Source: a bacterium (lineage in GTDB: Bacteria > UBA8248). Taken from it: a stretch of DNA of 64,000 nt. Positions 13,501-53,800 of the stretch are shown piece by piece (the stretch's first letter is position 1; every line of letters starts with the position of its first letter). The DNA is taken from positions 29,324-93,323 of the forward strand of contig CBDBZY010000056.1 of the NCBI GenBank assembly GCA_965213685.1, read 5' to 3'. Position numbers and translations under genes: made by a program. Below the pieces are notes generated by a model, which saw only the letters and a program-made list of their open reading frames with translations, searched no databases and was not told where the DNA came from.

Positions 13501-14867
13501 AAGAGAATGAGGATTATAATCCTGTTCTTGCAACTGATCTTCTTCAACAACTTTTCAAAGGAATTGATGGTCATAGCCGAGATATTCCTTTTACTGAAGA
13601 GTACAAAGTTGATATGGCTCTTACTGTGTGTGGGTTTGCACTCAAAAAGTTGCAAGAAGTTGTAGAAATTGCCAGGAAAAAGAATGATCCAGTTGAGTAC
13701 CTGGAACGGGAAATGAAAGGGCCACTTTTCAGAATATTTAAAGATGAATACTATCAAATAGCTGAGGAGGTCACAGCTGCTTCTGCAGTTTGTGATCTAC
13801 TTTTGCGCTCAGTAAAGAAGGAGGTCATTAGCTCATTGAGCCCAGACATTGTCACCAGTATGAAAGGTAGTAAGGGTTTCTTTCACACCAAAAAGGGTTT
13901 GAAAGCAAAAATTCTTCTCGATATTGGGGAAGATCTTGATCATTGTAAGGGAAGAAATTTTGAGGACTGTAGGCTTTACCTCAAAGAGATAGATGCTAGT
14001 CTTCAAGTTTGGGTTAGACGCTACACTGAACAGCATTGTAGTGAAGGTAATCCATCAAGGCTTGCAATAATTGCCACAGACAAATTAAACACTGTTGTGT
14101 CAAATACAAAAAGAGCAGTAGTTTCTGTTACAAATGAATTTTTGGTAAAAGGCGGTGAGTTCAAAATTACACAATGGTTGAGTAAGTTTCACAGTATCCT
14201 AAATGAAAGTGGGAACTTACAACTAGATTTGACAGAATTGCTGCAACTTGGAGGTGTGCGTCAGTTACGAAATCTTACGTATTTCACAGAAGAACTTAAC
14301 AAAGGGCTTGATAACTTGTATTCCACACTTACAGCAGAGTTTGAGGATATGTCTGTTGCTGAAATACAAAAGTGGCAAACAAGACCTAATGATATTTTGT
14401 TTGAAGAGCTTGCAGGGTGTACTGAGCAATGTCCGTTTTGTAAAGAGCAATGTGATCTCACTGACAAAAACCACTTCCATTCCAGTAGTACAAGTGCTGA
14501 AGAAGCCCACAAGCACAGTGTGACCCTGCATCGTCCTTCTTGTCTTGGGGGTTTCAGATGGGTTAAATCTAATAAAATGATTTTGGATATATGCACTTCC
14601 TTGGTTGCCAGTGATTATAGGTTTCGGGATCTTAAAACAAAGTTAGAGTTTCATCCGTACAAGGAGTACTCAAAGTTCTATCCAGAATGGTCTATCACAG
14701 ATGACACATCACAGAAAGCTTCACTGTACTGGAAGTGGTTAGTAGGAAATTATAAAAAGAAAATTGCTGCAGAGTTTGCGATGGAGGAATGCGAAGTTCC
14801 TAGTGAGTGGAAGCAGCTGAAGTGGAGTGATGTTAAGAACAGCTTAAAGGATGCATACAAAGTGTAG
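7528..14867 (+). CDS. Interferon-induced very large GTPase 1 / URGCP-like protein (VLIG family); large terminal exon of about 2445 codons
   Basis: Uninterrupted 2453-aa ORF; G1 GLQSSGKST (11940), GRCTRGAFMQL, G3 DTEGLRA (12099), HDNELATFVIGLAN, C-terminal GCTEQCPFCKEQC; polypyrimidine-AG acceptor at 7526-7527, so the ORF-track Met is probably intronic. Confidence 0.92.
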
Positions 14868-18825: not shown

Positions 18826-20810
18826 TTCTTGATGGTACAGCGACAGGGACAAATGACTGTGGCAGTTGGGCGTCACACGATTCATCCTCTGCTGCTGCAT
18901 CACTTGTCGCTTGGTGATCAGTGGTTGAAGTATCTGGTGAGAGGCTGGATTCAGTTACAGATGTAAAGGTGGCCATGTTCTCATCGTGTGGGAGCTGCTC
19001 TAGTGCATTGGTGTCGATGGTCACACCCAGTGCACGGTAGTACTGGTTGTTGGAGAGCAGCCATTGCAGTGCTCGGAGCACTACAGCTCGTCTGACCCGG
19101 AAGTCACGGTGGGTGTGGTTGGCTCCCTCCTTTCTCACAACTATGACATCCAGTTCACGTGGTAGCCTTGGTAAACTCTGGGCAAAGGTAGCCACATCTT
19201 GGGACAGGTTGATGACATGCCCACTGTATCCATACTGCCCCTGTGGGAGTCTGTACACTGACATGATGGGCATAACAGCAGAGATGAGCATCTCCTCCAC
19301 CTGGGACAGCCCCTACAGACACAATCAGATAAGAAATTTAATTTTGAGTGACCCAAAATGAGGTAAGTAGGGTGAAAAGATATTTGATAAGAGTGCATGA
19401 CCTAAAAATAGTTACAGCTTACCATCAGCTCCACTGGTACAGGTCCAGGATGCATGTTGTTCTCTGTAGAGAATGCCTTGGGGCTTTGCTGATCCCTGTT
19501 GCACCGAATGCACTCAGTTCCAGCTGGGGTGATCCTGATCGTCATGCCAGGAAACCTCTCCATGCATGTCACACATGTAGACACATGTAGGCCAGCCATT
19601 CCGGAGTGGAACTTGTTCATCTTCGAGTGAACAACTGGCTGGTGAAGGAGAGGCTGGACAGAGGAGAGGGATACGGCCCACTGCATGTGTCCCTCCCTGT
19701 CATGACAACGTCGTGTTTCAGTCTCTTGTTGAGTCTCTGAAGTAATGCGCTGTCGCTGGCAGGTTCTCAGTCGTTGTAGTCGAGCCTTTCTCTCCTCGGG
19801 GGTTTCTTTAGCCAGTCGTTGCTGCTGTTCAAGTCGTACCTGCTGCAGGCGGGCCTCTCTCTCCTCAGGGGTTTCTTCAGCCAGTCGTTGCTGCTGTTCA
19901 AGTCGTACCTGCTGCAGGCGAGCCTCTCTCTCCTCAGGGGTTTCTTCAGCCAGTCGTTGCTGCTGTTCAAGTCGTACCTGCTGCAGGCGAGCCTCTCTCT
20001 CCTCGGGGGTTTCTTCAGCCAGTCGTTGCTGCTGTTCAAGTCGTACCTGCTGCAGGCGGGCCTCTCTCTCCTCGGGGGTTTCTTCAGCCAGTCGCTGCTG
20101 CTGTCTAAGTCGCACCTGCTGCAGGCGGGCCTCTCTCTCCTCGGGGGTTTCTTCAGCCAGTCGCTGCTGCTGTCTAAGTCGTACCTGCTGCAGGCGGGCC
20201 TCCCTTTCTTCGGACAGCTCTGACTGAGCTTGTCTCCGCTGGTAAGCGTGTCTCAATTCCTGCAGACGCGCCTGCCTCGCTTCGGTGGACTGGGCGGTAC
20301 GTCTTGCTCTCTCTCGAGCTCGGCGTCTTGATAGACGCGTTTCCCTTTCTTCTGCACTCTCTGTAGCGAGACGTTCTCTCTCGCGAGCTCGGCGTCTTGA
20401 TAGGCGCGTTTCCCTTTCTTCTGCACTCTCTGTGGCGAGATGTTCTCTCTCTCTAGCTCGGCGTCTTGATAGGCGCGTTTCCCTTTCTTCTGCACTCTCT
20501 GTAGCGAGATGTTCTTTCCTTCGAGCTCTGTCACGAGCTAATCGCCGCTCTCGAGCTTCCATGCGTTCAGAAGCAGGATGCTGTTGGTCGTCGGCAGCAA
20601 ACTTAATCCTGCTGGGCTTGGCTATAACTTGTAAGCACATGAAGATGACGTAACCGAGCCGTCTTTACGTTTGCCCGTAGCGCGGGGGCCCGCGGAGGCC
20701 TAAAAGCAGTGCCGGTCCGTCGTATGAAATAAATAAATAAATAAATAAATATATAGAGGGGGGCTCCGTTTGCACGACTAGGCTGGGGCTCGCTCCCGCT
20801 CGCCCAATTA
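18826..20810 (-). mobile_element. Helitron-like element 5' part: 23-aa STPR-like repeats, CxxC..CxxC and a DUF6570-type domain; 3' truncated, no HUH or helicase present
   Basis: ORF 19402-20640 has 69-bp repeats (ETPEEREARLQQVRLEQQQRLAE); a GT-AG intron at 19313-19422 joins PVPVELM|GLSQVEEMLISAVMPIMSVYRLPQGQYGYSGHVINL; terminus TAATTGGGCGAGCGGGAGCGAGCCC. Confidence 0.8.
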
Positions 20811-20815
20811 ACATA

Positions 20816-21987
20816 TCAGGGAGTCGGTAGACTCTCTATGTAGGGATGGCGCCGACACTCCCATAGTGCGCGTACATAGGAAAGCCTTCTTAACTCGCGA
20901 ATACTCGCGTTTTAAGCCTTTCTCGGCACGCGAATAGCCTATTCAACCGCTTCTCTACCCAACGATACCCCACAAGTAGCTAGAATGCATTTCTTGACTT
21001 ACTGCCAGATAATGGACGAAAGGTGATTTTGTTTTCCTTTTTTATTCTTCTTCTTCTTACGAGATTTCTTTCAAACGACTTTACTCGAAAGTGGCTGAAG
21101 TAATCACCATAGTTCTTTCACAGATCCACTGTAATCACTACGAAGTATGATCTGTGCTAACAAAATGTTAGTATCTTCTCTACTATGGGCAGAATCTAGA
21201 ACCCCAGACAACTTTACCATATTTGGAAGCCATTTTCAAATAATTATTGTCACGTGGCGCAAATTGTAAGCACGTGAGGGCGGGGCTTGCAAAGCCACGC
21301 CTATTAATTTCTCGATGGCAAAGGTTTGTCACTGAAGAGAGCGCGTTCTTACTTCGCCGTACAATTGTACAACGAACGTCAATGTAACTGGTATGAGTTA
21401 GCTAGTCAGATAGACTGAGGAAACTACTCTAGCTCAGGACTTTTTAGAGGGGCTCAGCCAGGCTCCCAACTTCGTAAGTGACAGAACACGAGGTTTACCC
21501 ACTCGTATCTCCGCCGCTGACTAGTAGCAATGGCTGCTCTGATCACTGATATGTTTGTTGGATTTTGAATGAAACTTGCAAGATCATTTTGTGTACTATT
21601 GTACAAGAAAAAGTACACAAACAAGTATGAAAAACATTTTCCAAAAATGTAGAGGGATGTAGGGATGGCAGTGCCAAAAACCACAGAAACTAGGTGTAGA
21701 GATGGCAGTGTACAGGCAAGACAGGTTATAAAAAGACTACACAAGCAACCCCATCCCTACATCTTTCTTTTTTCTCACCGCATGGTATTGATGTTCCCAG
21801 AATTGTCATAGCTAAACTCACAGAACAATTTCAAGGAAAAAGAAAGATGTAGGGATGGGGTTGCTTGTGTAGTCTTTTTATAACCTGTCTTGTCTGTACA
21901 CTGCCATCTCTACACCTAGTTTCTGTGGTTTTTGGCACTGCCATCCCTACATCCCTCTACATTTTTAGAAAATGTTTTTCATACTTG
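20816..21987 (+). mobile_element. Family 1 copy A (complete, young)
   Basis: A|TC head; arms 21622-21772 and 21837-21987 (151 bp, about 2 mismatches), 64-bp loop; ends TACTTG|T; near-identical to 54114-55305. Confidence 0.92.
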
Positions 21988-22993
21988 TAAATATATTAAT
22001 ATATAAAGAAACAGACAAGGGGCTATTGAGTTCAGATGAGTGGGCTCGCTTCCGCTCGCCCAATTAAATTATTCCAGTGTATCCAATGATACCCCCCAAG
22101 TTGCTAAAACGCATTGCTAGACCAACCAACGACACCAACTGAACCATCAGTTTCTTTAAAACATTTTTCAAACAGCACTTCTCAAAACTGGTTGAAGAAA
22201 TCACCATATGTTTTGCATAAATCTACTTTGGTCTATACGGAGTACAATCCTAGCAAGCACAACATTTGTACGCCTTTCTAAACTCTGGCAAACAGAAGTT
22301 AGGAGCCCCATACACTTCTTTACATTTAGAAGCCATTTCTAATACACTGTCACTTGGCACAGTTTAGTGCTGCCTGGAATTTTTTGGAGGGGTTCAATCC
22401 CCTCAACTAAAGAATGGGAGTGCCGACGCCCGCCCTTTCCACCATGCCCATGATATGTAGCAAAGGCTGTTGTGGTTGCTAATCTGTCTGAAAGTAACTT
22501 GTGAGAAGGATATCTCCCTTCAATGTGACTTGCAAAAAACACACAAATAAACAAAGAAGACTCTTTTCAAATATTTAAAGGGATGCAGGAAAGTCACTGT
22601 AGTTGATAGTGTTTAGACAGTGCTGGATTTCTCAGTTTCCTCAAAGCTGCAATCAGAAAGGTTTGATCTTTTTGTAACAGCACTACACACAGAGATTTGA
22701 AGGGTCATCACATGCAACAACATCCTAACACCAATCCAACACAGTCTATACACAGCTAAGGATCACACTTTGAAAGTAAGATTACTGATTACTGACTGGA
22801 TAGTAACCCAGAAGGGTCTCTCACTGCCATTATTTCGGTCAGGTGCATCATATGTACTTACAGTGCCATGATTTGTTACTTATGGTACCTGTGTATACTG
22901 CCTTGGTGACCCCAATGAAAGTACTGTTGGGTATTCTGGTACAAACTAGGTGCCAATAGTAGTAGGATGCTGCATGGGCCTATGTAATTATAG

Positions 22994-26645: not shown

Positions 26646-28470
26646 TATATACATGTACATTCCAGGCTGGAGCTGAGAGCTATAACATATTAGGCTCTGG
26701 TCAGAAGAGGTTGGACATGCATCACGTGTTGTAATGAATATCTTTAGAAAAGCAATTTTTTCAGAATCTTTTGGAACCTGTGCACCTGCTCTGTGTGGCC
26801 GAGTGCAGTAGTGGCCAAGTGCGGTACTAGGTTCCATTGCTGTGCCATGAGCCAGGAGAAGCGTCACAGGGGAAGACTCACTCCCACCAGACCCCTGACA
26901 CACTGCAGTTTAGCTCAAAAGCTGTAATTGACTTCATCAATCTGCACAAAACAGTGTGTCTCCAGTTCCTTGCCACATTCCTCACATAAATCAGTTCAAG
27001 AATCAGTTTCTGGAACACAAAGAGCAGCCATCTTTGTTGCCTCATTCCTAGGCTACCATCTCTCATAACGTAACTTGAGCACAACGTGCATGTTCTGGCA
27101 GACATGTTCACAAGTGAGCACATGCGCAGACTATAATGACATTCCAAAGTTACAGTTGCGTTAAAGTCCCTTCCGTGTTAGAGTCAAAAATCAGACTAAG
27201 GAGGGTAGAACTCGAGACTAGACAATCCAAAGAGGGAGAGGACAAAGGGGAAGATAGTGGGGATAAACAATATGCACATGTGCCATACACATCTCTTACC
27301 TTCTCTCTGCTTCTCTGATGCTCTCCTTCTGCATGTAATAACAGCCCATGGATTAACCTGTTTATAGACGGCAACCACCCCTTGTTGCTAGGCAACCACC
27401 AGTTGACCATCAGCAGTTTTTCCAGTAAATCATTGTTCTGTAGATGAAAACTGTTGGATTTCATGATTATTGACCGGCATGTACATGTAGTACAGTACAG
27501 CACAATTTTCACAGACAGATTCACATGTAGTACAGTACAGCACAATTTTCACAGACAGATTCCTTTGAAGCCTAGCTACAACGTCCACATATGCAAGGGG
27601 AGATCCCCTATTTACACAGTCAGATGTACAGATCATGAAAGTATGTGTATCTCCCCTACCAACGTACGTATCTTCAGTGTGCCCCATTTCCAGCAACCCC
27701 CTTTCTATACAGTTTGGCAGGTGTACAGATACTATTCATGAGGTACTTGTTACACTGGGAAGTAGGGGGAGGAACAGGCAAGGAAGTATTCACCACCAAC
27801 CATCACAGACACTCACCACCAACCATCACAGACACATGATAGACACAACGGCTGATAATACCACAACTCCAAGTATTCATCTGAATCACCCCCCACACAA
27901 CACACACCCCTTCTAAATCTGGTCATACATCTACAGGACCAGGACCCACCCACTATAGAACACACACATACTCCAAACATGCATGCACATATGCGTAACT
28001 TGTCCGGGTGGCATAAACACAAAAACTGCATTCACAAAGGTGCTTGTCAGGTTGAAAAGGGGTTCTGAAGACACAATGAGTTATGTACATAATGATGGTA
28101 CATGTTTGATGAAAGAAAGTGTATGAAGCGTAGACAAACATTCATCTAGCTCTATCACTTAGATGTTTTCTAGACAAGCGAATAATAGAACATTCAATTA
28201 CAGTTTCGGGAAAGGGTGGGGCACTACATGAGTCCATCACTCCCTCCCATCCTCTCTCCCTTCTCACCAAGAGCATACATGACTATCTACTAGTTGCTAG
28301 AGCACCTCGTCCACCGTGAACGCTTTTGCACAGAGAGCTGACAACTGTCTTACAGTGGTGTGTAGCTTTTTAAACGTTGGATAGACATAAGAGGTCAGTG
28401 CCACCATGGCACTGAACTGACATGCAACTCTTCATCTTATGAAGTGATGCACACAACAGTCACCCAATGT

Positions 28471-28511
28471 GCAGGACGCGCGTTTCGGCCATACCAGGCC
28501 TCATCAGCTGC
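28471..28511 (-). ncRNA. Minimal type I hammerhead ribozyme (Penelope-associated type)
   Basis: Minus strand: GCAG CUGAUGA GGCC-UGGUAU-GGCC GAAA C-GCGC-G UC CUGC. Core is complete, stems I and II pair, stem III is short and palindromic, and stem I extends via GUCACC/GGUGAC. Confidence 0.85.
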
Positions 28512-28989
28512 GCTGGGGTGACCGGGAGTGTGGGTACTACACGTCATACACGTGCAACACAGATGGCTGGCCTTAAGTCTTCACAGTCACACAGCTTGGT
28601 AGCTTATAGCAGTGCTCATCTTCTTCAGTCAGCTCAGCTTCCTCTTTAGGACAAACGCTACCTCGATGGTAACTATTGAAACGGCGCTTGTCGCGCCTAG
28701 CAACAACAGCCCCAGATACACAGGGAAACACAAACTTTACTCTCCCTCTAATTGTGACCTCAAGCTTGTTTTCATTGTGCAGCCGCTCTTTATCACGGGG
28801 TATGCTAGCACCCTGCATATAAGTATTGCCCAGGTCACTCGCATCAACCCTCTACATTTGAAATTTTGGGTTTCACTTTCAAATACTACACCTAAGAATA
28901 TCCAAGTGACAAACAGGCAAAAAAAGAGATTTATCAAAAATTGGTGAAAGTATATTGCATATGGTGTGAGATATTAGGAAAGTGTGATA

Positions 28990-29627: not shown

Positions 29628-30469
29628 CCATAAGTGGCCCTCCCATACCAAAACGTTGGATGAGGAAGTAGTGCATGCAATAGGTTTTCGTGTACGTGTC
29701 ACATACTGTGTCGCACGTGCGTGACGTTAATTATCGTACTAGTTCGACATAATAGCAAAAATGGAAGTTTAATATTTAGCTAACGGTTAAACCGTTATAT
29801 AACTGGACAGTTGTCGAAGAGCAGACTTGCTGCAAACCGCAATAGGGCTACTAGCCATCAGAACCCTGCATCGCCCGTGCAAGCAGTGCGCAATACGCTT
29901 GTTTACGCAATCAGCATTCTCTAATTGCGATTGCGTGGTAAACTTCGTGCCAAGTGCGCGCGCGACCGAGGAACAGGACTGGGGGCCAGGAATCGCTCAG
30001 CCTGTGGGTCCACATGAAAGCTTACTTCTACCGCGCTCACGCCACCCACGCGCAAACGAACGCCCTCGTTTAGACCCACGCATTTCCTGTAGTTGGTACC
30101 GCACGGTTTGAGTAATGTAATTGGAACAGTATAGACCTTTTGTGCTAAGAATGTGGTGTATCTACGGGAGAGTCTGAGTAAAGGGTTTGATGATTCAATA
30201 TAGCTACTAGATTTCACTGTTACATGACAAAACTCACAAAAGAATGGTTGCATCGTGTATTGACCCCTCGGAAGTAAACGAACCTCCCCTATATACTGGC
30301 TGTTGTAGCAACAGCAAGAAACAAAAGAAACACGAAGTCAGGATTTCGAGTATGTGTGGATATCTCATTGTTTGCGTACGTGTGGTCTCTCGTCATTTGC
30401 TTACCTGTACATGCTCTGTGCGTGCCCGTACAACACACATATAAAGCAAGACTTCATGGGAACATTTAA

Positions 30470-31618
30470 GGGAGGGCGAGTCATGATTGCGTTCTTCCTC
30501 AATTACTCTACCGTCGCTTTCCTCCTACATTTACCAACGCTAAAACGACAGCAATTCGTTGGCGCGGTTGCAAATTCGCTGGGAAAAAATTCATACTTCC
30601 CGCTACCGTTGGACGTGCGGCGCTGTGTGGCGCCAACCGGTGAAGAGGTGGATGCTCGCCAAAGGGGAGTGAACTAGTTTATGCGCAATGGGTTGCTCGA
30701 GGCTTGGCTTGCTACTTTATGGCAGAATTTGCTACCGTTTTTCTAAATTCTGCAGAACGAAGAAAACGATTATATGTCTAGAAAGAAAGATTTAGCACGG
30801 ATTTTAAAGCAAACTTAGATAGCCAACATGCTTAGTAATCATCCACCGAAGTTTCGTCTCTGCAGCATTAGCCGTTATTGGCAAATGTTTTTTCTATAAT
30901 TAGCGATATGCATATTGCGTAAATTTTAAAATTCTATGAACCGACATATCACGCAAAACTACGTTATTTCGCTAACAGGCATCATTAGGAGAATACAATA
31001 AAACATAATTCAGGCAAAATCATGTCTTAGGGTTGTCCTGCCTTAAGGGAGGGCGAGTCATGATTGCGTTCTTCGTCAAATACTCTACCGTCGCTTTCCC
31101 CCTACATTTACCAACGCTAAAACGGCAGCAATTCTTTGGCGCGGTTGCAAATTGGCTGGGAAAAAATTCATATTTCCCGCTACCGTTGGACGTGCGGTGC
31201 TGTGTGGCGCCAACCGGTGAGGAGGTGGATGCTCGCCAAAGGGAGTGAACTAGTTTATGCGCAATGAGTTGCTCGAGGCTTGGCTTGCTACTTTACGGCA
31301 GAATTTGCTACCGTTTTCTAAATTCTGCAGCACGAAGAAAACGATTATATGTCTAGAAAGAAAGATTTAGCACGGATTTTTAAAGCAAACTTAGGTAGCC
31401 AACATGCTTAGTAATCATCCATCGAAGTTTCGTCTCTGCAGCATTAGCCGTTATTGGCAAATTTTTTTTCTATAATTAGCGATATGCATATTGCGTAAAT
31501 TTTATAATTCTATGAACCGACATATCACGCAAAACTACTTAATTTCGCTAACAGGCATCATTAGGAGAATACAATGAAACATAAATCAGGCAAAATCATG
31601 TCTTAGGGTCGTCCTGCC
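30470..31618 (+). mobile_element. Two head-to-tail Kolobok-type non-autonomous elements of about 573 bp (30470-31042, 31047-31618)
   Basis: TTAA at 30466, 31043 and 31619; GG...CC termini with imperfect TIRs sharing CATGATT. Confidence 0.85.
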
Positions 31619-31989
31619 TTAACTATGTGCACTTTGTATTCCGTATATCCCATGGTCTCAATAATCGGTGTCAATTGTTGCGTACACTTTCAATATGCCT
31701 CTAGCTCTGGGGCTCTGGTGCATTTTGGAATGGCGTCGTTCTCGGATTCCATTTGCTCTGCCTGCTGTCGGTCTCTGCACAGTATTGGCAATAGGCGGGC
31801 ACTTCATCGTTTAGACACAGTCCATGCCTGTGTGGAGTCTTGTATGTGTAAGTCGAACAGATACGGAGACTCACTAACACCCATTTTCCTTCTATATAAG
31901 TTCTTGACGTCGTGTCTGGTGTGGTGTCATCTCTAAATAACCCAGAAATGCTGTAGAAAGGAGCCTGCATTTGCTGAAGCTACACCCAG

Positions 31990-35718: not shown

Positions 35719-37606
35719 TCACACCTACAGTAGTAGGTGTATATAGGGATTGGCCAGGGTCCTCAGCATCAAACCTGTACATTTGAAATTTGCAATTTTC
35801 ATTTTCACTATGGAAGCAATCTGACTTCTAGTGGTATCCAAGTTAAGAGTATGCAAAATGTTAACTGTACCTTAAAAATTGTGGGAAAATACTTTATAAG
35901 GTGTGTTATATACGCAAAAATTCATTTCACAAATTGTCCTTCTTGCTGTTCCAGTTGAAGAAGCGAAACTCAATAACCATATGCATAGTACCATTAACCA
36001 TGATAATGCACATGTAGGTACATGGCATTGATGGCTAGTGCATAGGCATAATTTTTTTTCGTTAACCCCTTCACTTCTTGAGATATTGATGATTATCTAG
36101 CATCTCCATGTACTTTGTGTATTGAACATACATTATAAATTCAAATGAGGGTAACTACGCGCGCTTTAATGAGCGCTTAAATCACCAATTTTTGCGCTTA
36201 CGTCTTAGATACGGTACATAGATACTTGAAATCCACTTACACGCATATGTCGCGTGGTCACTGGCCGGCTGGCAGCTGTTGCGCGCGCCGCATGCTCACG
36301 TGCACGTGCGCCGCGCCGTTCGGGCGGGCTTCTAGCGCAAAGACAAGTACCGCGAACCGTGCGTGTAGCCTCGCTGCCCCAGTAGTTCTTAGGCGACGGA
36401 CGGCTTTAGCTAAACGGGACTAGCGCGGCGAGTGTAGCCATGTTCTCTAGACGTGTGATAGCGCAATGTGGCCCACCGGCTGGCGTACCTTTCAACGCTT
36501 CAGTCTCGTGGACTACTGCACGCAATGTCGTTAGAAGTGGGGACCATTGAAAAAGGACTAGAGCAGAGACTATAGTGCGGTACCGTCCAATACTGTACGT
36601 ACATCCTAGGCTACATTCTTAAGCCGTTTGGAGGCCGTGTGGGGCCGCCATGGGCTGGGCCTTAGCAACGCAAGGACCCAGGGGTTATTTTTATGCCTTG
36701 GTTACGCAGCTGCCAATTTCTGACCTGCGTTTGACTGTGATATGTGTTGAAGTTACTATCAGGTCTGTGTTTGGTGGACTCGGAAGCTAAGAAGGCGTGC
36801 TCAACACAGGCTGAAACGAACCAGGGAGATCTATCTATATGCACACTGCACTGCTACATATACATGTACTCTGCATCACGTGCATATCACAGTGCACTAG
36901 CACAAGTAGTTCTTCCTGCATATATCATATCACCTGTTGAAATCCATGCAGAATTGGAAAAGGTTTTACTGATACATTTTACTGTGTGCTAGTGTGGCTT
37001 TCATTGTATTATTTTCAACACTCTTGCTGAAAGCAGCAAAAAAAGGAGAGGAGACAAGTAAATTAAAAAAATTCAAATTTCGAAGGGAATATAGGGATTG
37101 CATAAAAAAGGAATGGAGACAAACCTGGATGTAGAGTACATAGTTGTCATGGGAACGATGATGAAGCATGGAGTACCTCATGCCTGATTATGCAACACAA
37201 GCCCTATATTGTTGAGCTGAGTTTCATGGAAACACAGAAATCACATGACTTGATCAATGAAGGACCATCACTGACCACGGAGGGACCACCCCAGACCAAT
37301 GTGGTACATGTCACATTTAGGACAGAATTTAAGTCTGATTTTGAACTACCTATCCCTGTCATCTGTCTTGCACTCCTACACCAACTTGCATACTTTTGTG
37401 TATATAGTGATAGTAGCTTTTGAAGGGACACGTTGGTGGCTGCTCAACAATATAGGGCTTGTGTTGCATAATCCGGCATGAGGTACTCCATGCTTCATCA
37501 TCGTTCCCATGACAAGTAGTTACAATAATAGCATGTACTCTACATCCAGGTCTTGTCTCCATCCCTATAATATTCCTTTTGAAATTTCAATTTTTTAATT
37601 TACTTG
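35719..37606 (+). mobile_element. Palindrome-ended Helitron-like element, family 2, copy 1
   Basis: A|TCACACCTAC-AGTA-GTAGGTGT-ATATAGGGATTGG head; arms about 37055-37218 and 37442-37606; ends TACTTG|T. Confidence 0.85.
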
Positions 37607-37609
37607 TCT

Positions 37610-39720
37610 TCTATTAAATTACAGGCAGAGCAGAGTCTTTGTTTCACAGGAAGTGATGATGGCTTATGGTACCGACCGGTTTCAATAGCTAAGTGATGGC
37701 AGCTTACTCGTAGTTTTGTTAACATCAGAGTGTCAATGGTTATATCTCCCAAAGAGACTCCTGCCTCATTCTTTGCTAATTCAACTTCTATACCACCAAC
37801 AAAAAGGCTGAATAGCAGAGGGCTAAGGCTACAGCCTTGCCTGACTCCCTTCTCACACTTAAACAAGCCTGTTGCATGGGAAGAGTTAACCTTAACTCTT
37901 GCTGTAGCTTTGATATACATTGACTGCAATATTCTAATTATTTGACAACTCACACCTACTCTACCCAACCTGCTCCACAGTAGGTCATGCTGGACACTGT
38001 CGAAGGCTTTCTTTAGATCAACACAGTAGACAAACGAGGGAGAGGCATCCACTCTAGCTTTCTCAACTAAAGTAGTCAAGATGAAAATACAATCTGTTGT
38101 TCTTAGATTTTTTCTGAAACCATGTTGCACTTCTGGTAGTATATTGTTATTCTCTGCCCACTCAGTAAGTCTGGAGCTAAGTATAGACGTGAAGGTTTTG
38201 CCAATACAGTTCAACAGTGTGATGCCTCTGTAACTATTTGGTTCAGCGTTGTTCCCTGCTTTGTTAATCGGACAAATAAGTCCTTGTGACCATGCATCTA
38301 TCAGGGTAGTCTCCAGTGATTAAAATTCCATTAAACATCTCTGTCAGAAGGTTTACTAAGCTGTGTGGAAGAGCTTTGTACACCCCTGCAAGAATTCCAT
38401 CTATTCCCGGAGACCTATGGCATTTCATGTTCCTTATGGCTAAGCATCTTCTTGACATGAAATTTCATCATCCAACTCAGGCACATAGGTCAATACTCAC
38501 TGCGCATTGAAAACAATTGTAGCTAGGTGCACCACTTTCATGTAACAACTTGAAGTGAGAATGCAATTTTTCTGGTTCTAGATGTGAATTGGTACTACGT
38601 TCTCTTCTTTTCCTATTTATAAGATTCCAAATTTTTTAGGACTCATCATCAGTAATGTAGCATGTAACTTGTTCTGTGCTTCAATCTTTTTAGACTTATG
38701 TATTTTCTCTTCTGGGAAAAATATTCCACTCGATTTTGCATACTTAAACATTGCAAAACACCTTCTTAATTGGCATCATTAACCCGTCACTTTGCTGCCT
38801 TACACTCATCATCAAACCACCTGTTTCTAGGAAAATACTTTTAGGCTGTTTAAGGCATTTTTTTTGCGACCTTGAACAAAGGTTATTAGCATACCTTGAA
38901 GATTTTCAGTCAAAACATGAAGTGGGTCAATATTTAGCCTGTCCTTAATCGCTTGAATTGTCACATCATTCTCACTTATTGCCTGATCATAATCTGTACG
39001 AACTTGATCACTCCAATACAATGGTTGTATAAGGGGATACATCCGAAAACTTGAGGTTTCTTTCTTGTTTTTTTCATTCTGTTCTATGGAGAGGTCCATG
39101 GCTAGGTATAATGGACAGTGGTCTGAGAATGTTGGCAACTCGCCCACAAAAAATCTGTCACTTTACTGTACAGATTGGAAGACACAATAAAATAGTCAAC
39201 CACACTGCACCCCCTAGAAGTATAGCATGTATAATTTCCTTTAGGGTCTTTCTTGTGTCTGCCATTCATTATTCTCAGACCACAACTTATACACAAATCC
39301 AGGAGGAGTCTCCCTTGAGCATTTATTAGTGAATCTTGTGATATACGAGGACATATGTTACTATCTGGTACATAACCACAAGGTAAATCAATTGGTATGT
39401 CTGAATCTGCTGAGATGAAGTCACTCTGGTTTCCAGTTCTAGCATTAAAATCTCCACACAGTATTATGTGACCTTTGGATTAAAAATCGATCACCTCAGA
39501 TTCCAGAGCTGACCACTGGGATGCTTCATTGGAAGTGACTATTGAGGTGGCTGGGGGAATATAGCAAAAACAACAAAACAAATTGACCTTGGCACCAGGC
39601 ACTTGAATTTTAACCCATATTCTATCCTCAGAATTACTGGGCTCCTGCAACTTTACATGTATATTCAAGGATTTGTGTATGTATAAGAGTACTCCTCCGG
39701 ATCCCTCCTAGCTCGTATAA
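37610..39720 (-). mobile_element. Degenerate LINE (AP endonuclease + RT; RTE-X-like), internally deleted
   Basis: YIPP and VVDYFIVSS / SDHCP endonuclease motifs; QHGFRK, DLKKAFDSV, GVRQGCSLSPLLF; C-terminal KLRVSCHHLAIETGRY..RLC; the YADD region is missing. Confidence 0.88.
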
Positions 39721-47880: not shown

Positions 47881-50186
47881 TTAAGGGGTACTATAGTGGC
47901 ATAGAGATAGATATTAAAAAAAGCTTGTGAAACTGTGTGGTGTGATGGCCTGTGGTTAAAGTTATGGGAAATGGGTGTTAGGGGGAAAGTATGGAGGGCA
48001 ATTAACAACTTTTCTACAAGTGCGGTGCTTTTAGAAGGGAGAAGTCAGAAACATTTTGGTTTAGAACAGGGCGTGGCACAAGGTTGTAGCTTGTCCCTTA
48101 TATTGATTTCCGTTTTTATTAATGATCCCTTAATAGAGGTTGAAAAGGCAGGGTTAGGAGTGCAGCATAACAATGGTAAGAGCATTGGAGGTTTGCTTTT
48201 TGCAGATGACTTTGTAGGCATGAGTGATTCAAGTGAAAATTTACAGAAGCTTACTGACATTGTCCATAAGTTTTGTAATCAGTGGAGGTTGTGAAGGCGA
48301 GTGTAAGTTAGTGTGCTGTAATGGTATTTTCAAAAGTTAAGTATCTGGTAGCTGGACATGGGGTGAGCATACTATACCACAAGCACCAAGTTATTGAATT
48401 TTAGGAATTGATTTTTCATCTGATGGTGGGTGGGATGCTCATGTGAAGAGAGAGTTAGTAATGGAAGGAATAATGTTAATCAGCTTCACAGTATTATTAG
48501 TGATAGGAATATATTTGAGTGCCCGAAAACTTTTACTTCTGTCAGTCCTTAGACCTAGTATAAGGTATGATAGTGAAGTTTGGAAATGCATTAGAATCAA
48601 TTCTCTTGGGGGGTCAGAGCTAAAAAGATTCTTGGATGCTCCTCTAGGACTTGTAATGAGGCAGTTAGAGGGGACATGGGTTTAGAGACCTTGAAGAGTT
48701 GTAGTGACAAGACTAAGCATAAGTGGTGGTACAAACTAGCATCTATGTCAGTAAGGAGGCTTTTAAATCAGGAATGGAAGATGAAACCACGTAGAGGCAG
48801 ACAGAGGAAGCCTTGGAATAAGTATGTAGATGAATTATTTGATGTGCTAGGATTGCCTAAAGGAGAATTGTTAGATGCTATTACGAAGGGGCAATGTCTA
48901 TTAAGCCTGTTTTTTGTCGAATGTGAATGAATGTGTAAGTAATAGAGAAAGTAAGAGGTATCTATGTGGAAGTATTGAATAGGTTAGAGTTGTATAAAAA
49001 TTTGGTAAGGAAGTAGAGTTCAAGAAGTACCTTGATGGAGTTAGTGATGCCAGAAATAGACTCTTGTTTAAATTTGGGTCAGGAACACATGGTTCGAATG
49101 AGGAGTTAGGTAGGCATAGGGGAAGGAATGGCAGGACTGAGTGTGTTTTATGTGGCAATGAGTGGGAGAGTGTTGTCCATGTTTTATGGGAGTGTCCTGC
49201 TTACAAGGATAGTAGGGAAGAGTTCATGATTAAGCTCAGGTCCACATTAGGAGAGGCTTTGAAAGACTTTGAAGCATTACATAATATTGAGAGGGCTTCT
49301 TTTGTGTTAGGTTGTGAGCTTTGGACAGAGAATTTTGATTCTATGCTTGCTTTAGTAAAGGAGTACATAACTGATGTGTGGGATGTTAGGAAGGTTAAAT
49401 TATATGGAGAACCATGCTCTACCCAGCCTCAGTCTCAGTCCTCGGCTGGGGATCTGAGGGATGGCACTGTGGTTGGGGGGCAGAGAAGAGGTAAGTTTGG
49501 TAAGTTCAGTCACTCAGAGAGAGTGACAGGTAAGTTATCTACATGTATAAATAATGATTCATGTAAAGCTGGCTCCGCCTATGCTAGATGCATGGTCAAT
49601 TGCAGGATTCCTAGGGCAGCCTCTTGAGCATTATTAGAAGAATACGACTTTTGTAAGGGCACAGTATGCACAGAAATGGAAGAGATTTGTGTAAATCACA
49701 GTGATAACTCCAGCCACTGTTGATGTAGCAAGAGTTATTCATTTTTTTAAGTTCAGATAAAAACGGCACTATGTGTTATTTAAATATTATTGTGCTTTGC
49801 AGGGGCGGAGTAAGCACTTCTTAAATGATCAGGCCAAGGGGCGTGGCTGAACCCATGCTCACAGTTGTAATATGATGTTACTATTTTCACGTGGCTTTGG
49901 AGCAGTCCCTATGCGCTAGCCTAGCCTGTTCATTAACTACGCCTTGCGTTGGTTGAGAAACACTAGAATGAGATAATAATGCCTAAACACAAGCTACAAG
50001 GTCAGGTGCATTTTCAAGTTTTAGGCTTTCCATGTTGTTACAATCTTCACATTATCTAGGGTATCGACTCTTATTCTTCACAATGTGCTGTAATGTTATT
50101 GCAAGGTTCCACTAGCAGTGAATTGCTGGCCAATGATACACAATTTCGTTGCTGTGTACTTCTTTACAAGGAGCTTGTTGTCTTAA

Positions 50187-50759
50187 GGCAGGACGACCCT
50201 AAGACATGATTTTGCCTGATTTATGTTTTATTGTATTCTCCTAATGATGCCTGTTAGCGAAATAACGTAGTTTTGCGTGATATGTCGGTTCATAGAATTA
50301 TAAAATTTACGCAATATGCATATCGCTAATTATAGAAAAACCATTTGCCGATAACGGCTAATGCTGCAGAGACGAAACTTCGGGGGATGATTACTAAGCA
50401 TGTTGGCTATCTAAGTTTGCTTTAAAAATCCGTGCTAAATCTTTCTTTCTAGACATATAATCGTTTTCTTCGTGCTGCAGAATTTAGAAAAACGGTAGCA
50501 AATTCTGCCGTAAAGTAGCAAGCCAAGCCTCGAGCAACCCATTGCGCATAAACTAGTTCACTCCCCTTTGGCGAGCATCCACCTCTTCACCGGGTGGCGC
50601 CACACAGCGCCGCACGTCCAACAGTAGCGGGAAATATGAATTTTTTCCCAGCGAATTTGCAACCGCGCCAAAGAATTGCTGTCGTTTTAGCGTTGGTAAA
50701 TGTAGGGGGAAAGCGACGGTAGAGTAATTGACGAAGAACGCAATCATGACTCGCCCTCA
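50187..50759 (-). mobile_element. Third copy of the Kolobok-type 573-bp element
   Basis: Reverse complement of 30470-31042, with TTAA on both sides. Confidence 0.9.
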
Positions 50760-50877: not shown

Positions 50878-53800
50878 TTACTGTTGTTTTTCTTTGCTTT
50901 GTCCTCCTTGGTTTGAGACTTTTTGGTTCTTAAAATAGGGAATACTTCCAACTGCACCACCTACACCTGCTCCTAGTAATGCACCTATCAGTGCTTTTGC
51001 AGCAGTAGCACCCAAGTATGCACCAAGACCACCCCCTATCGCTACCCCAAGCACTGCTCCTCCACCCACACAAATAAGGTAAAACCATGCATCACCATCT
51101 ACTGCCACAGCATTTTCCTTCTCACCATCTACTGCCACAGCATTTTCCTTCTCACCATCTACTGCCACAGCATTTTCCTTCTCACCATCTACTGCCACAG
51201 CATTTTCCTTCTTTAACTCGAGGGCTTTCCGCAGACTCTGATTTTCCTCCTGCAGACCCTGATTCTTCTCCTGCAGACCCTGATTCTCCTCCTGCAGGTC
51301 CTGAACTTTTTTCTGCAGATTCTGAAGTTCTTGTGTCTGTTCTTTATCCCTTTTTTCATACTCCTCTACCTTTTGTGTAAGCTTCTCAACTTGTTTTTCA
51401 TACCCCACTACCATTTGTTTCAGCTGCTTAACGTCTTCTTGAAGATTATCAATAAGTGGTTGACAAAGTTTGGCAATTTGCTCAGAAACCATGTCCTGCA
51501 TCTTCTTTTCCTGTATCTTCTTTTCCTGTATCTTCTTTTCCTGTATCTTCTTTACCTGCATCATATTTTCCTGTATCATTTCTTCCAAGCATCGCTGGGT
51601 TGGTTTTGAATAGTTATCCTCTAGATACTCTTTCAGGACAGGATCAAAGTCTGTGAGATCTTCTTTGCATAGATATTCTAAAACCTTCTGAGGAATATCA
51701 TCACAAGTAGCATCTTCAGGTACAATGTGATGAACATTGCACGCCATTGCCTTTCTAAGGACATTTGCAGCTTCTCTCATGAGGACATGATGGTCATCCT
51801 GTTTTGATCGTAGGCTTCTGATTATCTCCCTCAACCTTCTACTGATATCATCATGTTCACTAGGGAGTTTTTCCGAAATGTAGCAATGAATCATCCATAG
51901 ATGCCTCATTGTGCCACTGTATATTTTCAGAGCTGAATGCCTGTATATGGAAGAAATAAAGTAAATGAGTTGGATAGAGTCTGTAGCAGCTATAACATTT
52001 ATTGAATACAGGCATGTCATAAAGTGGAGGAGTCTGGATCTTTCTTTAACCAAGTTAAGGAGCGGCACCTATACTATACCTTGTCCTACGTGTAGGACTA
52101 TACAATACTATGAAAAGCTTTAACCATGGGCTCATACAACAGTGGACCTACACTTATTCTCAGCTACAACCATTAGACTGTGTAAGCTTAATGTGACGAG
52201 TTAGTGTTGTGCCTACGCACTAATAACGGTAATGAATATCACTATTGCCCATACATTGTACTTTCTGAGCTTGTGTGCAGACTTTGACGCCAGTTTTTGT
52301 GCCAGAAACGTGAGCTGTACCTTACCATATTTAGTGCTCTATCAAATAGCACGAGACTGTTCAAAATATTTTGATTGGGTGAATGGGAGCGAGCCTGTTT
52401 ACACATTTATATACCTACGTTCTTTTGGCCCCCGGGTTCCCACAAATGTAAAGCCAGCTCAATGATATAGTCCCCTGCACTCCCTCACGCGTAAAATCAC
52501 TCACAGCAGAGGGCCTGGGAACAAGGCTAGAGATAGAGCACTGCAGCTAGTGGACGAGCTACACCTTACAACCAGGTCATGCCTCCAGAAGAGAGTGAGC
52601 GAGGGAGCTAGGCGGCTGCCTGTTACAACCAGGCCTCGTCTTTAGTACACGGTGCTGGGACTCATGTTTCGGAGTAGTCAAAAGGCGACTGGATTTTATT
52701 TTACTGGGGGAGACATTGCAGAATTGTTAAGTCATAATATTACAAGTAAATTAAAGAATTGAAATTTTGAAGGGAATATAGGGATTACATAAAAAGGAAT
52801 GGAGACAAGACCTGAATGTAGAGTACATGCTATTATTGTAACTAGTTGTCATGGGAACGATGATGAAGCATGGAATACCTCATGCCTGATTATGCAACAC
52901 AAGCCCTATATTGTTGAGCAACCACCAACATGTCCCTTCAAAAGCTACTATCACTATATACACAAAAGTATGCAAGTTGGTGTGGGAGTGCAAAGCTACA
53001 AGACAGATGACAGGGATAGGGAGTATATAGTTTTGAAATCAGACTTAAATTCTGTCCTAAATGTGACATTGGTACATGTACCACATTGGTCTGGGGTGGT
53101 CCCTCTGTGGTCAGTGATGGTCCTTCATTGATTGAGGCATGTGATTTCTGTGTTTCCATGAAACTCAGCTCAACAATATAGGGCTTGTGTTGCATAATCA
53201 GGCATGAGGTACTCCATGCTTCATCATCGTTCCCATGACAACTAGTTACAATAATAGCATGTACTCTACATCCAGGTCTTGTCTCCATTCCTTTTTATAC
53301 AATCCCTATATTCCCTTCAAAATTTCAATTTTTTAAATTTACTTGTCTCCTCTCCTCTTTTTTTTTGCTGCTTTCAGCAGGAGTGTTGAAAATAATACAA
53401 TGAAAGCCACACTAGCACACAGTTACATGTATCAGTAAGACCTTTTCCAATTGTGCATGGATTTCAACAGGTGATATGATATATGCAGGAAGAACTACTT
53501 GTGCTAGTGCACTGTGATATGCACGTGATGCAGAGTACATGTATATGTAGCAGTGCAGTGTGCATATAGATGTCCCTGGTTCGTTTCAGCCTGTGTTGAG
53601 CACGCCTTCTTAGCTTCCGAGTCCACCAAACATAGACCTGATAGTAACTTCAACACATATCACAGTCGAACGCAGGTCAGCAGCTGCATAACCAAGGCAT
53701 AAAAATAAGCCCTGGGTCCATGCGTTGCTAAGGCCATAGTCTATACAATCTATGCTAAGGCCCAGTCCATGGCCGCCCCACACGGCCTCCAAATGGCTTG

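Follow-up and report, generated by a model that had tools for sequence, protein, structure and literature searches.

Shared terminal signals of two probable Helitron2-type element families in putative host DNA of a nominally prokaryotic assembly

Family 1 and family 2 are two groups of dispersed elements found in a 64,000-nucleotide stretch of DNA (the window, C56:29324-93323, on contig CBDBZY010000056.1) of an assembly of 71 contigs and 7.97 Mb that is filed under prokaryotes (GCA_965213685.1). Their layouts are the same and their letters differ. Both families are very probably non-autonomous elements of the Helitron2/HLE2 type that belong to a sponge-like host, and their shared end grammar would then represent the terminal signals of a transposase lineage with the domain order DUF6570-Rep-PIF1 helicase-OTU. 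The elements have precise ends, insert between A and T without target duplication and are dispersed; their terminal stems and repeats co-vary, and the ends of family 1 are linked to a RepHel gene. A first-pass annotation of the window had proposed that the shared ends are the cis signals of one enzyme lineage and hence a class-level architecture. The dispersal, the empty sites, the RepHel-linked ends of family 1 and the co-variation support the former, and the latter is borne out as well. The class is one already described as Helitron2/HLE2, so the shared-end observation is real but largely ordinary. Positions without a contig name are those of the window, and a caret marks the point of insertion.

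Precise ends and target site

Heads, the 5' terminal regions, were each paired with the next tail. The 47 heads paired in this way gave 41 pairs that were un-nested and shorter than 2.5 kb (median length, 1202 bp). The base before the element (-1) is A in all 41, and the base after it (+1) is T in 40; further out, T occupies -2 in 28 and A occupies +2 in 31. To find sites lacking the element, the 60-nt flanks were joined and searched against the assembly, and full-length paralogous empty sites were recovered for 7 of the 47 joined-flank queries (identity, 87-100%). In all seven, exactly the element from TC to CTT(G) is missing, with zero target duplication, and the junction is A^T in six and A^C in one. 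Matching flanks of 2 nt are seen in 19 of the 41 elements because the target preference is TA^TA; consistently, the checked empty sites hold both TAs. Several of the filled and empty pairs lie within kilobase-scale paralogous segments that are 94-99% identical, so those insertions are younger than the duplications. One family-1 copy (C64, minus strand, reverse-strand coordinates 51862-53033) stands between identical 8-nt direct repeats, TACAATAA, a single case among the 41 elements; variable-length duplications are known for some Helitron2 non-autonomous elements, as described by Bao and Jurka (2013, PMC3627910).

Family 2 is represented in the window by two copies (Table 1). The boundaries that the first-pass annotation gave to copy 1, from A^TC with the 8-bp stem and the motif to the end ...TACTTG^T, are exact for 35719-37606. 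Copy 1 sits inside a reverse-transcriptase-bearing repeat, and its empty site lies in another copy of the same repeat (C64:276490-276607, 93% identity over 120 nt), where the flanks meet exactly at A^T. Copy 2 shares these ends, carries a 2-nt AC insertion that separates TC from the stem, and is without about 650 bp of internal sequence that copy 1 has. Its head, on the minus strand at 54069, and a family-1 head on the plus strand at 54114 stand back to back, 44 bp apart. The bodies of the two families show no similarity, in agreement with the initial observation; the best BLAST match between them has an E value of 0.007 over 66 nt at the palindrome start. Inside family 2, a search for a captured gene or RNA gave no open reading frame (ORF) with a family match and no Rfam match.

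Terminal hairpin and 12-nt repeat

The 5' end of each family forms a hairpin with an 8-bp stem and a 4-nt loop. In copy 1, the predicted DNA fold has an energy of -7.6 kcal/mol (z = -2.7). Across a set of 30 heads, 23 of them distinct, the stem is paired in 98.4% of cells, as compared with 33-58% in controls in which the 3' partner was slid by 1-3 columns, and none of 500 shuffles gave a covariation score as high as that observed. Of the eight stem pairs, five differ between families 1 and 2 on both sides and three are unchanged, so that the earlier description of a completely exchanged stem sequence was too strong. The same description assigned an AGTA loop to family 2 and a GGTA loop to family 1. 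AGTA does occur in family 2, in 4 of 15 heads including copy 1, but GGTA is present in 10 and GCTA in one; the loop is therefore essentially common to both families. Likewise, the GGTA loop and the TAGGGAT core of the adjacent motif are identical in the two.

The hairpin is followed by a 12-nt repeat, whose inverted copy lies 34-36 nt from the 3' end; the two copies are perfectly complementary in 36 of the 41 elements. The 5' and 3' copies read ATGTAGGGATGG and CCATCCCTACAT in family 1 and ATATAGGGATTG and CAATCCCTATAT in family 2, and the two positions that differ between the families are altered in both copies of the repeat. The first-pass annotation had placed this inverted motif about 35 bp from the far end, which agrees with the 41 elements and also with copy 1, where it is degenerate (37559-37569) and its part at 37561-37569 is 37 nt from the end. 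In family 1, the 3' repeat is followed by a 7-bp hairpin ending 12 nt before the terminus, which closes with CTTG.

Dispersal in the assembly

In the window, the head pattern has 9 matches with at most one mismatch against 0.01 expected, and TRTAGGGAT has 44 against 0.85 expected. Across the assembly, exact head matches number 71, with none for the reversed control pattern. When up to two stem mismatches are allowed, there are 88 heads, of which 84 are preceded by A and 75 carry TC. The matches of the head pattern are confined to five contigs, C16, C18, C41, C56 and C64, with a guanine-cytosine (GC) content of 43-50% and a total of 3.66 Mb. The dominant repeats of the window are now identified.

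Family 2 has 15 heads in the assembly, with 14 distinct 5' flanks. A BLAST search with its tail gave 38 rows. In 20 of them the match is the left palindrome arm in reverse, flanked by internal sequence, and the remaining 18 represent true 3' ends. T follows all 18 of these ends, which have 15 distinct flanks and fall into three tail subfamilies. Twelve close with CTTG and six with CTAG, so the CTTG close initially reported for the family holds for two of every three ends and fails for the others. Family-2 copies are present on all five contigs, with 70-95% identity to the query. Three family-2 heads lie in one orientation within 20 kb of C16 (407402, 416188 and 427692, plus strand), and two of the three have identical 5' flanks with homology limited to the first ~530 nt. 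Such an arrangement may be tandem or segmental, or may reflect multi-headed elements.

The pattern search suggested by the first-pass annotation thus returned two head families in the assembly and, as described below, a coding member with a family-1 3' end. A third head family was sought and rejected: the 63 perfect 8-bp stems found after TC with an NGTA loop fall into two recurrent kinds (52 and 9 stems), apart from 2 unrelated ones without the motif. Other CAAGTA...TACTTG palindromes either belonged to family 2, as subfamilies or inner parts of it, or were unrelated. Matches to the head grammar in prokaryote genomes (25) and metagenome contigs (51) are attributable to chance, having 3-8 stem mismatches and at most two motif copies per locus; a complementary stem is present in 0 of the 25 and 0 of the 51. 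These collections are not oriented to eukaryotes, and their null result is therefore uninformative on other animals.

The long 3' palindrome

The elements end in a palindrome with arms of 150-172 nt that are 96-99% complementary. The first-pass annotation had noted this long palindrome in family 2, and it is present in both copies: that of copy 2 (52748-52919 and 53168-53339) has arms of 172 nt with 97% complementarity, and that of copy 1 has arms of about 162-165 nt interrupted by indels. As single-stranded DNA, the copy 2 palindrome has a predicted energy of -217 kcal/mol as compared with -61 kcal/mol for shuffles (z = -35). In family 1, the copy at 20816 has 155-nt arms at 21621-21775 and 21834-21988. 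In both families, each arm has a second motif copy in the opposite orientation at its inner end, with the variant ATATAGGGC in family 2.

The two arms within a copy are more alike (median complementarity, 97.9%) than are the left arms of different copies (median identity, 91.4%; 49 loci). Among 46 copies, departures from the consensus are shared by both arms in 335 cases and confined to one arm in 176, and compensated changes occur in 46 alignment columns. Because the departures are mostly carried on both arms, the palindrome was maintained during subfamily divergence. Selection on active copies, or repair in the hairpin at a single-strand stage, could account for such maintenance.

The palindrome was also considered as an independent mobile unit, which the flanks of 55 family-1 palindrome loci rule out. 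Of these loci, 39 were classed by regular expression as having element-internal sequence on one side and 3 as having it on two sides, and the other 13 were classed by eye from printed flanks. Internal sequence stands on at least one side in all 55, and unique flanks on both sides are found in none; the palindrome is therefore not separately mobile. A full-text literature search, with Repbase outside its scope, gave no precedent for Helitrons with long 3' palindromes, which is no proof of their absence.

A linked RepHel transposase

In a Pfam search of all contigs, C64 alone had both Helitron_like_N and PIF1 (Table 1), each over the Pfam cut-offs. This RepHel region is called decayed because its domains are spread over several frames. 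Its 3' end is a family-1-type right arm, ...TTACTTG^T, and the copy retains about 25 nt of the left palindrome arm. From 107332 onwards, the copy aligns with family 1 from about position 230, so that the termini shared by family 1 and the coding copy comprise the 3' end and a 5' region lying inward of the head, which the coding copy is missing. No head of its own was found for this copy; a head-like sequence at C64:106600-106630 is on the opposite strand, and a foldback repeat is inserted at C64:106944-107334, in the 5' region. One family-1-type head, interrupted by an insertion, is followed about 570 bp later by a second and divergent Rep fragment.

Intact public relatives of the RepHel protein are 2104-2242 amino acids (aa) long, have an identical domain order and are endonuclease-free. 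No endonuclease domain was found in the C64 copy, in three intact relatives or in the precomputed Pfam domains of the best 120 homologues. DUF6570 is located upstream of Rep on C64 and is also present in the intact relatives. The closest named relative is a protein from the sponge Ephydatia muelleri, with 55% identity.

Origin of the window and neighbouring features

Most contigs of the assembly have a GC content of about 65%, and a few large ones have 43-53%. The window is read as host DNA rather than bacterial DNA because the large contigs of 43-50% GC carry animal-type genes and transposons. It would thus be metazoan-like, sponge-like DNA of a host animal co-assembled with a bacterium of about 65% GC, the suggested sponge affinity being drawn from one named match. 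A host animal origin is accordingly flagged for at least five contigs of the nominally prokaryotic assembly, 3.66 Mb in total.

Apart from the elements, the window encodes a URGCP-like GTPase, two reverse transcriptases and a protein with STPR (23-aa) repeats, and contains microsatellites and a type I hammerhead ribozyme (Table 1). Animal hammerhead ribozymes often belong to retrozyme or Penelope-like repeats. The tandem repeat that codes for the STPRs immediately precedes the family-1 copy at 20816; STPRs are among the domains reported to be captured by Helitrons (Li et al. 2024, PMC11417382). The window also contains an abundant foldback repeat of a separate kind, at 30466-31622 and 50182-50758, which is the one that interrupts the coding copy on C64. 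Its arms are about 171 and 218 nt long, and its copies, numbering about 45, are 94-99% identical to each other.

Table 1 Coordinates of the elements, their parts and other features (window positions unless a contig is named)
Feature	Position	Strand	Details
Family 2 copy 1	35719..37606	+	1888 bp; whole non-autonomous Helitron-like element; sequence and paralogous empty site
Copy 1, 5' terminus	35719..35740	+	TC 35719-35720; stem 35721-35728/35733-35740; loop AGTA; preceding host A 35718
Copy 1, 5' copy of 12-nt asymmetric terminal inverted repeat	35741..35752	+	ATATAGGGATTG; motif search
Copy 1, left palindrome arm	37055..37217	+	begins CAAGTA; motif at 37089-37100
Copy 1, right palindrome arm (3' terminal region)	37442..37606	+	A/T-rich mini-palindrome; end ...TACTTG, then host T
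Family 2 copy 2	52743..54069	-	1327 bp; start 54069, end 52743, then T
Family 1 copy	4579..5740	+	1162 bp
Family 1 copy	20816..21987	+	1172 bp; TC + hairpin + ATGTAGGGATGG head
Family 1 copy	54114..55305	+	1192 bp; (CTT)n microsatellite near position 230; ends TACTT^T
Decayed RepHel region	C64:~107335-116644		DUF6570 (E 7e-11), Helitron_like_N (1e-15), PIF1 (5e-18), OTU (5e-10)
URGCP-like GTPase	7503-14867	+	2454 aa, uninterrupted frame; URGCP_GTPase E 4e-129, URGCP E 2e-81
STPR (23-aa) repeats	19402-20664	-	E 9e-32; encoded by 69-bp tandem repeat 19706-20528
Type I hammerhead ribozyme	28469-28513	-	37.5 bits, E 7.7e-6, over Rfam gathering score
RVT_1 ORF adjoining family 2 copy 1	37600-38319	-	domain match

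Comparison with known Helitron-like elements

Duplication-free insertion and a partner in which an HUH Rep is fused to a PIF1-like helicase are features of the Helitron-like superfamily, and both are found here. Within it, Helitron2 is described as having hairpins at both ends and asymmetric terminal repeats of 8-15 bp, with the 3' copy just upstream of the 3' hairpin (Bao and Jurka 2013, PMC3627910). The same authors noted compensatory mutations and proposed that pairing of the repeats sets the replication endpoint. The present elements resemble that description in the hairpins at both ends and their compensation, in a RepHel without endonuclease, in zero target duplication and in a short asymmetric inverted repeat with a subterminal 3' copy that precedes the 3' hairpin, a hairpin that is clear in family 1 and weak in family 2. 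However, the 5' repeat of Helitron2 belongs to the hairpin and stands within 0-2 nt of the end, whereas here it begins 22 nt in, after the hairpin. The 3' repeat of Helitron2 is 20-30 nt from the end as compared with 34-36 nt here, and its target is TTTT^T or TTTT^C instead of (T)A^T(A). In addition, the descriptions of Helitron2 in that paper are without a long 3' palindrome, which the present elements have. For HLE2, the published targets are T^T or T^C, and DUF6570 is almost exclusive to HLE2 (Li et al. 2024, PMC11417382); the main text of that study is without mention of sponges.

A 5' stem-loop upstream of the left repeat has been reported in proto-Helentron and in HLE2-reverse elements (PMC11417382). 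The proto-Helentron of Phytophthora and the HLE2-reverse elements FoHeli3, FoHeli4 and FoHeli5 also share HLE2-type coding content, namely DUF6570 and OTU, with the present system (PMC4067079, PMC11417382). Proto-Helentron is inserted between A and T and ends with CTAG (Thomas et al. 2014, PMC4067079). By its description, on which this likeness is drawn, it differs in that it starts with TT rather than TC, has OTU as a separate ORF and has been reported only from oomycetes. FoHeli1 and FoHeli2 of Fusarium oxysporum start with TCAG and a hairpin, have subgroup-specific stems and a 12-bp inverted repeat, form hairpins at both termini and use TNAT^T as target (Chellapan et al. 2016, PMC5148889). 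In contrast to families 1 and 2, these fungal elements end with ATTTT and have 5-bp 5' stems with a 3-nt loop, and a long palindrome is not part of their description in that paper.

HINE/DINE-1 elements, which are non-autonomous Helentrons, show a 5' repeat with a hairpin-forming partner and a microsatellite in the left part, as does family 1 with its (CTT)n (PMC4067079; Vojvoda Zeljko et al. 2020, PMC7492417). They are also similar in a 3' repeat that lies 38-60 nt inward of the end, a 3' palindrome and an unrelated interior between related flanks, but HINEs have T-rich (TT) targets, endonuclease-encoding partners and 3' palindromes of 5-10 bp as compared with 150-170 bp here (PMC4067079, PMC7492417). 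Helentrons likewise carry an AP (apurinic/apyrimidinic) endonuclease fused to RepHel, whereas the RepHel found here is endonuclease-free. Canonical Helitron1 is similar in its 5'-TC, A^T target, zero duplication and, for family 1, the spacing of about 12 nt between a short hairpin and the 3' end, and the CTAG end of one family-2 subfamily fits the CTRR consensus. Canonical Helitron1 ends are CTRR, whereas most ends here are CTTG, and in the description by Bao and Jurka (PMC3627910) Helitron1 has neither a 5' hairpin nor terminal inverted repeats. The present elements therefore combine HLE2 architecture and an HLE2 coding marker with Helitron1-like cutting (A^TC, CTNG^T) and an unusually long 3' palindrome.

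Alternative explanations

Several points weigh against assigning both families to the terminal signals of one Helitron2-type lineage. The sole long coding copy is frameshifted and without its own 5' head, and the 3.66 Mb of host-like contigs hold no coding copy bounded by family-2 ends. The A^T target with a TC start, as in canonical Helitron1, departs from the T^T or T^C published for Helitron2 and Helentron, as does the position of the 5' repeat from that in Helitron2. The A/T-rich short 3' hairpin of family 2 is no better than shuffles. The five compensations in the 5' hairpin separate just two lineages and may represent few events. Finally, the HLE2 assignment draws on DUF6570 and the terminal structure, and the mobility of both families is deduced here from sequence. 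An origin as canonical Helitron1 (HLE1) derivatives with extra hairpins, in which the inverted 12-nt motif would have no role, agrees with the 5'-TC, the A^T target, the zero duplication and the CTAG that closes 6 of 18 family-2 tails. The short hairpin of family 1, 12 nt from the terminus, also has the canonical spacing of 10-12 nt (PMC5148889). However, such an origin is unlikely, given a DUF6570 upstream of Rep that is almost exclusive to HLE2 (PMC11417382), a 12-nt repeat that is perfectly matched in 36 of 41 elements and altered in step between the families, and a compensated 5' hairpin that Helitron1 is described as lacking (PMC3627910).

That two distinct but related RepHel enzymes each read their own variant of stem and repeat is a live possibility, although we lean against it. 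Each family consistently has its own stem and its own bases at two repeat positions, zero hybrid heads occur among the 63 perfect-stem heads, and a second, divergent Rep fragment is present. On the other hand, the host-like contigs hold a single long RepHel lineage, and the common GGTA loop and TAGGGAT core fit a reading of structure plus core by one enzyme. Foldback or MITE-type (miniature inverted-repeat transposable element) cut-and-paste elements, with the long palindrome as the mobile unit, would explain the highly complementary inverted arms of 150-172 nt, but the asymmetric ends, the seven duplication-free empty sites and the internal sequence beside all 55 family-1 palindrome loci make this explanation very improbable. 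The first-pass annotation had named a local inverted duplication as the finding that would overturn its proposal, and the window copies of family 2 are indeed inverted and 15 kb apart, in an assembly filed as prokaryotic. This is not what the assembly holds: the 15 heads with 14 distinct 5' flanks and the 18 ends with 15 distinct 3' flanks are spread over five contigs. A local segmental duplication, or an insertion sequence of the labelled prokaryote, is scarcely credible, since the carrier contigs have a GC content of 43-50% as compared with ~65% for most, encode reverse transcriptases and the URGCP-like GTPase and hold a RepHel whose closest named relative is from a sponge, and since complementary stems are found in none of the matches from prokaryote genomes and metagenome contigs.

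Proposed mechanism

In the Helitron2-type reading, the signals would be read in the order host A^TC, 8-bp stem-loop, 12-nt repeat and body, and then inverted 12-nt repeat 35 nt from the end, short hairpin and CT(T/A)G^ host T. On the basis of the known Helitron mechanism and the proposal of Bao and Jurka, an HUH nuclease would nick at A^TC, and the helicase would peel the strand off in the 5' to 3' direction. The 3' repeat, the hairpin and CTNG would set the second cut, after which the single strand would circularise and integrate at (T)A^T(A). The two repeat copies might pair with each other or present one protein site at both ends. Once single-stranded, the palindrome of 150-170 bp would fold into a long hairpin and might act as a reinforced terminator, and repair within this hairpin would keep the arms alike. 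More tentatively, and with rather more doubt than belief, the elements may represent an undescribed metazoan sub-type that joins HLE2 coding content and architecture to Helitron1 cutting (A^TC ... CTNG^T), in which the maintained palindrome of 150-170 bp would be a functional terminator or single-strand-stage structure, not debris.

Implications

Two modest additions to what is described for this class are the occurrence of an A^T target together with HLE2 features and the maintenance of the long palindrome. They may be of use to Helitron annotation tools, which presume T^T targets for HLE2 according to Li et al. (PMC11417382). The two families also provide a natural comparison, in which the stems and both copies of the repeat are altered in step. 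Such coordinated changes support the view that Helitron2-type enzymes read structure and a short core rather than the full sequence.

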